A stretch of DNA of 64,000 nucleotides from Minisyncoccota bacterium (GTDB taxonomy: Bacteria; Patescibacteriota; Minisyncoccia; Phycocordibacterales; JACRKE01), in NCBI GenBank assembly GCA_041660505.1, contig JBAZWG010000001.1, positions 541,776-605,775 of the forward strand, read 5' to 3'. The first letter of the stretch is position 1; each line of letters opens with the position of its first letter. Both the position numbers and the translations under genes were made by a program. A model generated the notes under the pieces. The model saw only the letters and a program-made list of their open reading frames with translations. It made no database searches and was not told where the DNA came from. Below are positions 46,714-50,978 of this stretch, in pieces.

Positions 46714-48309
46714 GTACTCCATCCAGATATGCAAAAAATCCTCAACAAAAAACGCAGCGGTTAAGGAGATTCGCATCTGTGCGTACTCTTAAATCGCCAC
46801 AAGCGATTTTTTTTGTCCCAGAGGGACAATCCGCCGGTGAGGCGGGTGAGAGATTCATCAGAACGACCCGTAACTTGAAAATTTAATTCCATCGCATCAC
46901 TGGTGTTAACCAATTTTATTGGGGTCTACCATGATGAAGATGGGCAGGAAAAAGAAAGAAAAAAACAATTAAGCAAAGACGGTTTTCATATTTCCTAATA
47001 GGAAATATAAGAGCATATGGTGGATGCCTAGACTTTGAAAGGCGATGAAGGACGTAGCATGGCTGCGATAAGCTTCGGGGAGGTGCCTAGCAACCTTTGA
47101 TCCGGAGATGTCCGAATGGGGAAACCTTCATGACGATGAGTCATGAGACTCGTACTAATTCTACGAGATCGCACACCCTGGGAAGTGAAACATCTCAGTA
47201 CCAGGAGGAAAATAAACAAAATGTATTCGAATGTGGGATGTGGTGCGGTATAGTCCGCAGTACATCCTACATTCGTTGTATTCCCTAAGTAGCGGCGAGC
47301 GAAAAGGGAGAAGCCCAAACCGAATTTTTTCGCAAGAAAAACTTCGGTGTTATAAGGCAGTGATATAGAATTTATTCTAGTAGAGTTACAAAACAGCATA
47401 ATAATCGAATCGACTGGAAAGTCGAGCCACAGAAGGTAATGGCCCTGTAGATGAAATTATGTTGTCTCTAATTACTGTTCTTGAGTACCCCGGGACATGA
47501 TAAGCTTGGGGGAAGTCAGCGGCACTAACCGCTAAGGCTAAATACTTTCAAAGATCGATAGTGAACTAGTACCGTGAGGGAAAGGTGAAAAGTAGCCCGG
47601 TGAGGGCGTTGAAATAAACCTGAAACCATATGTTTACAAGGAGTCGGAGCGGATGGCGCAAGCCATGCCGCGACGGCGTGCCTATTGAAGAATGAGCCAA
47701 CGAGTTTATATGTACTGCTAGGCTAATCGCGTTAACCCGCGAGGAGTCATAGGGAAACCAAGTGTTAATAGCGCGTCACCCTGTTTACAGGGGTGTAGTA
47801 CATGTAAGACCCGAAGCCAGAGCGAGCTTACCATGAGCAGGGTGAACCATCGAGAAATCGATGGGGAGGCCCGAACCCGTATGTCGTACAATGCATTGGG
47901 ATGACTTGTGGTAAGAAGTGAAAAGCTAATCGAGCCTGGTAATAGCTGGTTCTCTCCGAAATAGCTTTTGGGTTAGCGTCACGTGTTCCATGTGGGGGTA
48001 GAGCACTGGAAGGTCTCGACAGGTCGAAAGATCGCGAGACCTATCAAACTCCGAATACCACATGCTAAAAGCGTGGCAGTTAGACTGCGGGGGCTAAGCT
48101 CCGTTGGTCAAAAGGGGAACAGCCCAGATCTCAATCTAAGGTCCCTAAATCTACGTTAAGTGCATCACAAGGAGGTGAAGTTTCGTTGACAATGAGGAGG
48201 TTGGCTTAGAAGCAGCCACCCTTGAAAGAAAGCGTAATAGCTCACTCATCGAGAGACTTCGCGCCGAAGATAATCGGGGCTCAAACGTAGTACCGAAGGT
48301 GAGGACTTG

Positions 48310-48388
48310 AGGACTTCATTTTTGCAAATTCAGAAGGTTCAACCTTTTGAATGCCTAAGGTTGAACCTTGGGGCAAAAATGAAGTCCT
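48310..48388. repeat. REPIN-like palindromic doublet, family A copy A4, at the tip of an extended 23S helix (H45 region)
   Basis: aggacttcatttttgc ... gaaggttcaacctt / ttgaatgcct / aaggttgaacctt ... gcaaaaatgaagtcct. The repeat doublet is enclosed by a further 16-bp inverted repeat. Confidence 0.65.
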
Positions 48389-49190
48389 TGAGTGGTAGGA
48401 GAGTTTTCGTGTCCGCAGTGAAGCCTAAGGGGTGACCCGTGGTGGAGCGACACGAAGTACGAATGTTGGCACAAGTAACCGCAATAGCGTTTAGAACACG
48501 CTACGCCGAAAGACTAAGGTTTCCTTCGCGATGTCAATCAGCGAAGGGTTAGTCGGTCCTAAGGGAATGACGAATGTCGGACCCGATGGAATACAGGTTA
48601 ATATTCCTGTACTTTTTTGTAGTCTGATGAAATGACGAAGTGTAGTATGCATGGCGCATTATGGATTTGTGTTTGCGCATCCGCCTTGATTCCCAGGAAA
48701 ATCCGGGAGTCTGTCTTTAATGACGACGGTGAAGGTGTGTGAAGATTCCGCGATTCGTCAAAGGAGATCATGCAAAGCGCGCTTCCAAGAAAAGTTTCTA
48801 AAGATAACTACAGAAAAACCGTACCGTAAACCGACACAGGTAGTCAGGTCGAGCAGACCAAGGCGAACGAGTGAGTGCATCCCAAGGAACTCGGCAAAAA
48901 AGCGGCCGTAACTTCGGAATAAGGCCTGCCCACGCAAGTGGGCTACAACAAAAGTTTCTCTGGCGACTGTTTATCAAAAACACAGCTCCCTGCGAACTCG
49001 TAAGAGGATGTATAGGGGGTGACGCCTGACCAATGCCAGAAGGTCAACCGGTGACCGTGTGCGCATCACACTGCGTGTGATGCAGTTTAAATATTTAAAT
49101 ATTTAAATTTGCATCGCGCTTGGCGCGATGCGTATGCTGTTCGTCGTAAGCCCTGGTGAATGTCGGCAATAACTATAATTGTCCTAAGGT

Positions 49191-49510
49191 TTTCGGATGG
49201 TCGCAAGACAATTCGAAAAGAATTGGGACAATTAGAGTACTGTGTAGATAAATTAGTCATAATAAGTCATTAATGCAAGTCAAAGACGATAGCGCTACCT
49301 TATCTAGCTATATGCTGTAGAGTCTGTACATTCATTTATACAGATGAGCAGCAGGGAAGTCGCCTCTACGGCGACCCCTCAGAGACTGAACGCTGGACAT
49401 GAAATTCTCCTCACGGAGAAGATTATGAAGATATAGTCCGTACTCGTAAGCGATTACGAGAGTTTTGTAGAAATACAAAACCCATGTCGCAAGGCATTGG
49501 TAACATATAG
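49191..49510 (+). mobile_element. Group I intron in 23S rRNA (E. coli ~1917-1931 region), no homing-endonuclease ORF
   Basis: Inserted between exon gtcctaaggT and agcgcaattccttgtcggg. The 5' exon ends in U and the intron ends in G. Contains the P7-region elements cagagactgaacgctgg (R-like) and aagatatagtcc (S element, identical to the Tetrahymena consensus). Confidence 0.6.
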
Positions 49511-50173
49511 AGCGCAATTCCTTGTCGGGTAAGTTCCGACGTGCACGAATGGCGTAACGACTGGAGAACTGTCTCGGGATGTTGCTCGGTGAAAATACAG
49601 TGCCGGTGAAGATGCCGGCTACCTGCAGATAGACGAAAAGACCCCAGGAGCTTTACTGTAGCTTGATATTGATTATACGTTTTGTCTGCGTAGCATAGAT
49701 GGGAGGATTTGAGAGTATGATTTCGGTTGTGCTTGATCCGTCAGTGAAATACCATTCTTATGAAGTGTATAATCTAACCTGCAAGGATAAACCTTGCGGA
49801 GACAGTATCTGGTAGGCAGTTTTAGTGGGGCGCTATCCTCCTAAAGAGTAACGGAGGAGTTTATTAAGGTTGGCTAGCCGCGAATGGAAACCGTGGCGAT
49901 AGTGTAATGGCACAAGCCAGCTTAACTGCAAGACGTACATGTCGAGCAGATGCGAAAGCAGAACATAGTGAACCGACCATGCGCATTAGAGGCGGTGGAA
50001 GATTATCGGACAAAAGCTACCCTGGGGATAACAGGCTGGTACTGCCCAAGCGTCCATAGCGACGGCAGTGTTCGGCACCTCGATGTCGGCTCATCTTATC
50101 CTGGGGCTGGAGAAGGTCCCAAGGGTATGGCTGTTCGCCATTTAAAAAGATACGCGAGCTGGGTTCAGACCGT

Positions 50174-50503
50174 ATAGCACCTAAATTTAAATATTTAAAT
50201 TTTGAAATATTTAAACAGTGGGTTTTATACCGTCTGAACCCTCGAGAATATGATATACAACAAACCACATCATACTGTTTACTTGAATCACGGCGGTCGT
50301 AGATAGAGATATCTATGATAGAGCTGACTTATATCGGTGGAGTCCCATGCGGATCACACCTAGGGAATTTCTAATATTTAAATATTTAAACATTTAAATT
50401 TTGGACGACCCGTAGAGACTAAACGTCAGCCATCTTCATTCATAATTTATTGTGAGAAAGATGAAGCTATAGTCCATGCCCGTAGCAATACGGTGAATAC
50501 ATG
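50174..50503 (+). mobile_element. Group I intron in 23S rRNA (E. coli ~2593-2600 region), no homing-endonuclease ORF
   Basis: Inserted between exon gggttcagaccgT and cgtgagacagg. Ends in G. Contains agactaaacgtc (R element) and aagctatagtcc (S element). Confidence 0.6.
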
Positions 50504-50865
50504 CGTGAGACAGGTTGGTCTCCTATCTACTGCAGGCGTTGAACATTGAGAAGATTTACTCCTAGTACGAGAGGACCGGAGTGAACTGACCGCTGGTCTA
50601 CCTGTTGTCCTGCCAAGGGCACCGCAGGGTAGCTAAGTCGGGAAAGGATAATCTCTGAAAGCATCTAAGAGAGAAGCCAACTTCAAGATTAATGTTCGTT
50701 ATGAGACTCGTGAGAGATGATCACGTTGATAGGTGTTCGGTGTAAGCATCGCAAGATGTTGAGCCAAGACATACTAATAAGTCCATTCCTATTAGGAAAT
50801 ATGGAAGTCGTCGAAACTTAAATTATTTTTTCTTTTAAAACCTGCAAATATAAAGTTGAATGTTT

Positions 50866-50978
50866 AGTTTTGGTGGTTTGTCGGAGGGGTCACACCTGTT
50901 CTCATTCCGAACACAGAAGTTAAGCCCTCTTGAAGCGATGGTACTCCTAACGGGGGAGAGTAGCTAGCCGCCAGAACT
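50866..50978 (+). rRNA. rrf: 5S ribosomal RNA
   Basis: ggtggtttgtcggaggggtcacacctgttctcattccgaacacagaagttaagccc...gggggagagtagctagccgccagaac matches the 5S consensus helices and loops. Confidence 0.85.

Follow-up and report, generated by a model that had tools for sequence, protein, structure and literature searches.

Two group I introns without open reading frames, most likely spliced, in a Patescibacteria 23S-5S rRNA unit unlinked from the 16S gene

The 23S rRNA gene of a Minisyncoccota bacterium (GenBank assembly GCA_041660505.1, contig JBAZWG010000001.1) is interrupted by two insertions of more than 300 nucleotides (nt) and has no 16S gene beside it. What are these insertions, are they removed from the precursor, and how is the unit arranged in the genome? 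We analysed a stretch of 64,000 nt, positions 541,776 to 605,775 of the contig, which we call the window; coordinates refer to it unless another locus is named, and other loci are designated L004, L006 and so on. We are confident that the locus is a self-contained Patescibacteria 23S-5S unit, with the 16S gene ~14.4 kb downstream under its own promoter, and that the insertions are two group I introns without open reading frames (ORFs), at sites L1931 and L2593, which are most likely removed by splicing.

The window was scanned with Rfam at gathering thresholds; the gathering score of the group I intron model, Intron_gpI (RF00028), is 50 bits. The insertion sites were placed by MAFFT alignment to E. 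coli rrlH (L083), followed by direct reading of the sequence. The unit contains the following genes and introns:

46994..50798, plus strand: 23S rRNA gene (Rfam RF02541, LSU_rRNA_bacteria, 2245 bits, full-length model; MAFFT alignment to E. coli rrlH)
46994..49190, 49511..50173 and 50504..50798, plus strand: 23S exons, 3155 nt once spliced
49191..49510, plus strand: intron 1, group I, L1931, 320 nt, without an ORF, omegaG at 49510 (RF00028, 58.6 bits)
50174..50503, plus strand: intron 2, group I, L2593, 330 nt, without an ORF, omegaG at 50503 (RF00028, 56.4 bits)
50869..50976, plus strand: 5S rRNA gene (RF00001, 74.3 bits)

Two Intron_gpI matches were obtained, both above the gathering score: 49184..49460 (58.6 bits, E 2.7e-12) and 50275..50495 (56.4 bits, E 1.2e-11). 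In E. coli numbering, the first insertion lies between U1931 and A1932 and the second between U2593 and C2594. Excision of 49191..49510 restores the conserved sequence CCUAAGGU joined to AGCGCAAUUCC, and excision of 50174..50503 restores CAGACCGU joined to CGUGAGACAGG. Each insertion is preceded by U and ends in G. No ORF longer than 61 aa lies inside either intron. The longest ORFs that touch an intron (57-83 aa) extend into an exon; a Pfam search with the cutoff relaxed to E<=1 matches none of them, and no endonuclease remnant was found. Neither window intron carries the homing endonuclease gene that characterises a mobile group I intron.

A first-pass annotation, made from the sequence by reading, had already described both insertions as ORF-less group I introns. 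Its coordinates for them are exact to the base, and the flanking U, the final G and the lack of any ORF long enough for a homing endonuclease are as it described. The ranges it gave for the sites, 1917-1931 and 2593-2600, contain the right positions and are replaced by the exact sites 1931/1932 and 2593/2594. The R/S elements of the P7 region that it picked out are present, cagagactgaacgctgg with aagatatagtcc in intron 1 and agactaaacgtc with aagctatagtcc in intron 2; the annotation had listed the two pairs in the opposite order. It had proposed a search with Intron_gpI and LSU_rRNA_bacteria as a check, and this is the scan that returned the 23S gene, the 5S gene and the two intron matches. 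The Rfam scores agree with the helices P1-P10 assigned by hand and with covariation in homologues, and together they support the assignment of both insertions, judged on sequence, to group I.

The structure is clearest for intron 2, whose helices are as follows:

50288..50298, plus strand: internal guide sequence, UCACG/GCGGUC (direct reading)
50300..50315, plus strand: P2
50323-28/50425-30, plus strand: P3
50334-39/50357-62, plus strand: P4
50342-45/50351-54, plus strand: P5
50363-65/50409-11, plus strand: P6
50415-21/50470-75, plus strand: P7
50431..50463, plus strand: P8
50480..50493, plus strand: P9

As far as sequence can tell, intron 2 carries every canonical group I feature. In P1, GCGGUC pairs with the exon sequence GACCGU and includes the wobble pair U2593.G50293. 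In P10, UCACG, which adjoins the P1 strand, pairs with CGUGA, the five bases at the start of the 3' exon. The guide strand of P10 covaries with these exon bases, the pair reading UUGCG/CGCAA in L024 and L025 and UUACG/CGUAA in L097 and L170. GNRA loops cap P2 and P9, and P7 has a bulged A. A long hairpin across the 5' splice site was considered as P1 and rejected, because GCGGUC gives a U.G pair and an adjacent, covarying P10; in the hairpin, U2593 stands opposite A in most members and no P10 adjoins.

Introns occupy the same site in related Patescibacteria (L004, L006, L007, L008, L020, L021, L022, L024, L025 and L026). At gathering, Rfam calls none of the relatives' introns except that of L025; they were identified instead by exon anchors and by a covariance model of our own, R1, built from eight cores. 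R1 scores intron 2 of the window at 175.9 bits. In an alignment of nine members made with R1, the proportion of paired cells in P10, P2, P3, P4-P5, P6, P7, P8 and P9 is 93.5%; with the partners slid by 1-3 columns it is 32-41%. Both partners have changed in 25 pairs. An alignment fitted to R1 is biased toward the structure, which lessens the weight of these figures as support; the same compensatory changes are present in a structure-blind MAFFT alignment. The P6 loop holds a LAGLIDADG_1 gene in L021 and a 45-nt AT-rich filler in intron 2 of the window.

Some alignments were discarded. In a whole-intron MAFFT alignment of the L2593 introns, the L022 core and the variable regions on the 5' side were out of register; this alignment was replaced by core and covariance-model alignments. 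Insertions that MAFFT placed after position 1931 in L004 and after position 2593 in L017 were misplaced, both sites being uninterrupted on inspection. At ~5548..5565 of L017, the sequence 3' of U2593 reads UGUAAAACAG rather than the near-universal CGUGAGACAG, with no intron there. R1 also finds many additional weak matches inside the 23S genes of relatives, five in L015, five in L026 and others in L004 and L006, which suggests that these genes contain many group I introns, as reported for the Candidate Phyla Radiation (CPR).

Intron 1 has a similarly complete core:

49294..49302, plus strand: internal guide sequence, GCU/ACCUUA (direct reading)
49303-08/49392-97, plus strand: P3
49313-17/49349-53, plus strand: P4
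49323-28/49339-44, plus strand: P5
49354-56/49376-78, plus strand: P6
49382-88/49434-39, plus strand: P7
49398..49427, plus strand: P8
49443..49460, plus strand: P9, GNRA loop
49462..49481, plus strand: P9.1, GNRA loop
49482..49500, plus strand: P9.2, GNRA loop

All elements from P3 to P9 are present, including a P7 with a bulged A, and two extra GNRA-capped hairpins follow P9. In a MAFFT alignment of 10 mid-size homologues, 96.5% of the cells in P3, P4, P6 and P7 are paired, compared with 27-48% in slid controls; eight pairs overall show double-sided changes, among them five of the six pairs of P3. GCU/ACCUUA exactly complements the ligated junction UAAGGU/AGC and is therefore read as the guide sequence: ACCUUA forms P1 with UAAGGU, and GCU forms an invariant P10 of 3 bp with AGC of the 3' exon. 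GCUACCU or GCUGCCU is kept throughout the L1931 family.

To place intron 1 among its homologues, we searched a metagenome collection for a pattern that combines exon sequence with one intron segment as anchors. The pattern matched 120 stretches, of which 80 are listed as loci. The members fall into three length classes: 637-906 nt, with ORFs of 150-235 aa that contain LAGLIDADG-like motifs; 293-349 nt, the class of intron 1; and 187-250 nt, lacking P4-P6. The guide base opposite U1931 is G in 13 of 13 ORF-containing members and A in 24 of the 25 members without P4-P6, and is mixed in the mid-size class. Intron 1 has A at this position and thus carries the state linked to degeneration.

The short forms retain the guide sequence, P2, P3, P7, P8 and P9, and ~6 nt replace the entire P4-P6 domain; Rfam calls none of them. 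Such insertions of 187-240 nt, homologous to intron 1 and with U1931 paired to A, are found in L007 (7394..7611), L008 (6122..6354) and L017 (4256..4442), and further ones at ~28 metagenome loci among the matches listed (for example L085, L089 and L090). The three classes can be arranged as a reduction series, from ~750 nt with an endonuclease gene through ~320 nt, as in the window, to ~200 nt without P4-P6, with U.G giving way to U-A. If the series is real, it implies that very small group I derivatives without P4-P6 are still removed from rRNA somehow. Natural introns of this kind would test the minimum size of a group I-derived element that can be removed from an essential RNA. A limited literature search found nothing relevant on natural group I introns without P4-P6, which is weak evidence of absence; these ~200-nt relatives of intron 1 appear to be new.

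Is intron 1 still a self-splicing intron? Several observations weigh against it. In the guide P1, U1931 pairs with A49297 and not with G, the same A state that is nearly fixed in the relatives without P4-P6. The one place where U1931 can pair with G is the base of a local hairpin, which is used as P1 in the Rfam alignment. The duplex energies are weak (-4.7 kcal/mol for P1 and -0.9 kcal/mol for P10), and an L1931 intron is reported to remain unspliced in Simkania 23S rRNA (as cited in PMC11270868). These observations would be expected if intron 1 were a decaying group I relic without self-splicing activity, either retained at the base of helix 69 or dependent on a host or trans factor. We consider this unlikely. 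The P3-P9 core, the P4-P6 domain, the bulged-A P7, omegaG and the three GNRA-capped 3' hairpins are all intact, the core helices covary, and the Rfam score is above gathering. The local hairpin does offer a U1931.G pair, and a 320-nt insertion at the subunit interface should be costly to the ribosome. We retain intron 1 as a group I member because, the missing U.G pair apart, all other features are present. Self-splicing of intron 1 is probable, and it is rated less secure than that of intron 2 since U1931 pairs with A in P1 and forms U.G in the local hairpin only; intron 1 may splice poorly or need help.

The preferred reading is thus that both introns are most likely removed from the precursor by two-step, guanosine-initiated transesterification. 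Splicing would rejoin the exons that form the junction of helices 69-71 and the peptidyl-transferase ring. Both introns probably descend from the LAGLIDADG-encoding mobile introns common at these sites in CPR bacteria, with loss of the endonuclease gene.

It is very improbable that the two segments are instead intervening sequences (IVSs) or expansion segments, cut by RNase III without ligation or retained in the mature rRNA. Long hairpins that resemble IVSs are present in the same 23S gene, in helix 45 and at other places, and such insertions occur in CPR 23S genes (PMC11270868). However, the two segments fit the group I covariance model, have a covarying core and contain guides complementary to both exons. 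They interrupt single-stranded functional centres rather than helix tips, and their homologues include members with homing endonuclease genes. An extended tip helix at helix 9, 25 or 45 without a ribozyme core, by which an IVS is recognised, is found in the insertion at 48305..48393 and not in the introns.

In addition to the guide sequence, each intron contains a second segment complementary to the 5' exon:

50226..50241, plus strand: second segment of intron 2, UAUACCGUCUGAACCC, pairing with 50161..50176 (exon positions -13..-1 and intron positions +1..+3) as a hairpin across the 5' splice site
49223..49234, plus strand: second segment of intron 1, UUGGGACAAUUA, pairing with the 5' exon at 49176..49187 (E. 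coli 1917-1928, the 3' strand of helix 69)

In intron 2 of the window, 15 of the 16 positions pair, the mismatch falling at C2591 (position -3). At least 14 of the 16 positions are complementary in 35 of 48 distinct L2593 introns, and in none of the 48 for either of two controls, one taken from upstream exon sequence and the other a shuffled query. The pairing covaries. At exon position -6 the pair is G-C in 28 L2593 members and A-U in another 11. Covariation is also seen at position -8, in two members, and at position +3. At intron positions +1 and +2 all four types of Watson-Crick pair occur. Of 40 members, 38 have a mismatch at position -3 and 33 have A opposite position -1. The segment of intron 1 forms a 12-bp helix in the minimum free energy fold (z -4.4), with a duplex energy of -13.2 kcal/mol. 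At the two positions that the search pattern leaves free, 72 of 84 L1931 members are complementary, with the combinations TC/GA, CG/CG, CC/GG and TT/AA. In both intron families, then, a second segment that is conserved and covaries appears to pair with the 5' exon on the upstream side of P1, a feature that seems to be new.

What might these helices do? In each intron the second segment may tether the 5' exon. The intron 2 hairpin and P1 share exon bases -6..-1 and therefore cannot fully coexist, whereas the distal half of the hairpin meets no competition. The energies are -5.4 kcal/mol for the proximal half of the hairpin, -8.2 kcal/mol for P1 and -9.6 kcal/mol for the distal half. The hairpin would form first, because its 3' strand is transcribed ~65 nt ahead of the guide sequence. 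The conserved mismatch at -3 would then let the guide sequence displace the proximal half, so that the 5' splice site is first masked and then handed over, and the distal half would stay in place as an exon tether.

Two known arrangements resemble this one. In Tetrahymena pre-rRNA, P(-1) is an alternative 5'-exon hairpin next to the splice site, made by exon-exon pairing, that competes with P1. The helix described here is alike in involving the 5' exon and competing with P1; here the partner strand is intronic. In group II introns, the pairing of exon-binding site 2 with intron-binding site 2 (EBS2-IBS2) brings a second intron segment to exon bases upstream of the first. Here a comparable second exon-binding segment is found in a group I ribozyme. 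In a limited literature search, neither the exon-pairing segments nor the L1931 forms without P4-P6 were found in PMC11270868, 10.1101/705046 or PMC1995217. We put forward, tentatively and as a doubtful proposal, that a second long-range exon-binding element, absent from classical group I introns, evolved in both CPR families, as a splice-site mask and toehold switch in L2593 and as a pairing of GGGACNNUUA with helix 69 in L1931, together with the L1931 reduction series. If true, the exon-tethering, splice-site-masking helix is a new design feature of group I introns, relevant to engineered trans-splicing and circularising ribozymes. These helices and the reduction series are the parts of the locus that deserve specialist attention.

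We then asked where the 16S gene is. Rfam finds no small-subunit rRNA match in the window, which extends 47 kb upstream and 13 kb downstream of the unit, and ARAGORN finds no tRNA anywhere in it. A second contig of the same organism, L082, reaches 1.4 kb beyond the window, and its last letters, AGAGTTTGATCCTAGCTCAGGATGA, are the beginning of a 16S gene. The 5' end of the 16S, AGAGTTTGATCCTAGCTCAG, is represented by its first 25 nt at the end of L082 (~12783..12807), equivalent to window position ~65352. The 16S gene therefore starts ~14.4 kb downstream of the 5S gene on the same strand, with ~15 called protein genes between, and a TTGACT-17-TATTAT sequence lies ahead of it (L082 ~12560..12590). 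The possibility that the 16S was merely overlooked was dismissed: Rfam gives no small-subunit match in the window or the body of L082, and the first 25 nt are at the L082 end. The rRNA genes are unlinked, and the promoter-like sites predict that they are transcribed independently. The first-pass annotation had inferred this unlinking from the lack of a 16S or tRNA upstream; both statements hold, and the 16S is displaced rather than missing.

The arrangement recurs in relatives, in the order 23S-5S, FtsW and, further on, 16S. In L006, L007, L009, L019 and L027, the 5S is followed on the same strand by a 16S gene at a distance of 6-14 kb. The 23S-5S pair occupies the same place upstream of FtsW in related genomes, in which both intron sites are occupied. 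The best matches of FtsW (51844..52965), at 59-63% identity, are from Vogelbacteria, Taylorbacteria, Paceibacteria and other Patescibacteria metagenome-assembled genomes (MAGs). Of the best 28 matches (40-63% identity), nearly all belong to Patescibacteria, Parcubacteria or Saccharibacteria MAGs; identity in the tier below does not exceed 41%. By this protein comparison the host is a Paceibacteria-type CPR bacterium. It could be argued that the unlinking or the introns are assembly artefacts, as rRNA regions are often misassembled and L082 breaks at both rRNA genes. The same gene order and intron sites in many independent assemblies of related species, and the exact restoration of exon sequence on intron removal, make this hardly credible. 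Two further observations concern the surrounding genes. One of the genes that separate the 5S from the 16S encodes an IS200/IS605-type Y1 transposase (59608..60450; Pfam PF01797, E 1e-08). In L017 (6097..6168 and 6281..6352), L006 (3780..3851) and L009 (972..1063), one or two tRNA genes stand between the 23S and the 5S; the window has none.

The following signals lie around the 23S-5S unit:

46641..46670, plus strand: hairpin and T-run, aaaaaagcccttagaaataagggctttttt, terminating the upstream mechanosensitive-channel gene (45946..46623, Pfam; direct reading)
46685..46713, plus strand: promoter-like TTGACT-17 nt-TAAGAT for the 23S-5S unit (scan, 9 of 12 consensus matches)
46791..46816, plus strand: leader hairpin followed by a T-run, boxB-like or terminator-like (scan)
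46872..46887, plus strand: boxA-like element AACTTGAAAATTTAAT, with CAGAACGAC ahead of it (whole block 46859..46887), conserved in the leader alignment of relatives
46987..47002, plus strand: 5' strand of the 23S processing stem, catatttcctaatagg, complementary at 16 of 16 positions to 50788..50803, cctattaggaaatatg
51000..51026, plus strand: terminator-like hairpin and T-run closing the 23S-5S unit (scan)

The upstream terminator, which the first-pass annotation had also named, is read directly in the sequence as a hairpin and T-run. It has weak Rfam matches to terminator-containing families and is not listed by the consensus scan. The promoter pair TTGACT/TAAGAT, proposed in the same annotation, is present, but the scan by itself does not raise it above chance: the scan gives 5 sites against 7.1 expected, a point against an independent promoter. 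Its support comes from relatives, in which TTGAC..TATACT or TATAAT aligns with it at the same distance 5' of the 23S (L004, L007, L008 and L019). A GC hairpin with a T-run equivalent to that at 46791..46816 is found in the leaders of L004, L007, L019 and L022. By their resemblance to elements of rrn leaders, we take 46791..46816 and 46872..46887 to be boxB-like and boxA-like antitermination elements. The 5' block of the processing stem is kept in relatives. The unit would then comprise its own promoter, a leader of the boxB/boxA type, a 16-bp processing stem and a terminator.

How does this locus compare with those already described? Tsurumaki et al. 2024 report insertions in 82% of CPR 23S genes, with 433 group I introns detected by Rfam, 222 of them without an ORF, and hot spots at 1917, 1931, 1952, 2593, 2604 and 2657 (PMC11270868, which also cites Brown et al. 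2015 on CPR 23S group I introns). The window introns belong to the same clade, lie at sites 1931 and 2593, are detected by Rfam and stand as ORF-less forms beside LAGLIDADG_1-encoding ones; there is no essential difference. That survey does not treat RNA structure, second exon-pairing segments or forms without P4-P6, and leaves short insertions that Rfam does not call uncharacterised.

Introns at these two sites are known from bacteria and organelles; the bacterial ones, at L1931 (Simkania, Thermotoga, Synechococcus) and L2593 (Synechococcus, Thermosynechococcus), were compiled by Haugen et al. 2007 (PMC1995217). The sites are identical and the introns are group I ribozymes, linked in that compilation to single-motif LAGLIDADG genes and 650-750 nt long with the ORF, whereas those of the window have 320 and 330 nt and none. 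By published description (PMC1995217), the cyanobacterial L2593 intron has P7.1/P7.2 extensions and its L1931 counterpart lacks P2; nothing comparable to P7.1/P7.2 lies between P7 and P3' in intron 2 of the window. Brewer et al. place Patescibacteria among the clades with unlinked rRNA genes (bioRxiv 10.1101/705046). The window is alike in having the 16S far from the 23S-5S pair, and its particular order, 23S-5S, ~14 kb of protein genes and then 16S, is kept in at least five related genomes. Each of these traits, group I introns without ORFs in 23S genes, insertion hot spots at 1931 and 2593, and rRNA genes that are unlinked, has thus already been described for CPR bacteria. Intron-rich, unlinked rRNA genes had been called a CPR hallmark in the first reading of this DNA, and the FtsW matches of the host, PMC11270868 and 10.1101/705046 agree. 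In these respects the unit is one more well-resolved example that brings no change in understanding; its practical value lies in annotation and in keeping rRNA genes from being misassembled or misbinned.

The exons of the 23S gene contain further insertions relative to E. coli:

47226..47279, plus strand: insertion after position 232, a long hairpin (fold -37.8 kcal/mol, z -7.9)
47320..47369, plus strand: insertion relative to E. coli (MAFFT alignment)
48305..48393, plus strand: helix 45 insertion, a near-perfect 21-bp stem with two arms (fold -51.8 kcal/mol, z -7.9)
49057..49141, plus strand: helix 68 insertion with the AT tract TTTAAATATTTAAATATTTAAATTT (MAFFT, fold; 84% conserved in metagenome locus L188)

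The helix 45 insertion has the classical site and shape of an IVS excised by RNase III, and on this structural resemblance the mature 23S rRNA may be fragmented. Insertions of the IVS type at such sites have been noted in CPR 23S genes (PMC11270868).

A palindromic AT tract with an 8-nt period, AAATATTTAAA, occurs in 9 copies in the window against 0.08 expected, all within the 23S gene. The copies are located in the helix 68 insertion (49086..49107) and in peripheral loops of intron 2 (50186..50215 and 50377..50390). The helix 68 copy is kept in L188, whose own L2593 intron has different repeats, and the introns of L026 contain yet another genome-specific repeat. In L022, a tRNA-Lys(UUU) gene (4317..4394; Rfam 61.2 bits, ARAGORN) lies inside a 135-nt helix 45 insertion of the 23S gene (3040..6582). 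A tRNA nested in this way in an rRNA gene would imply that RNase P and RNase Z cut within the 23S.

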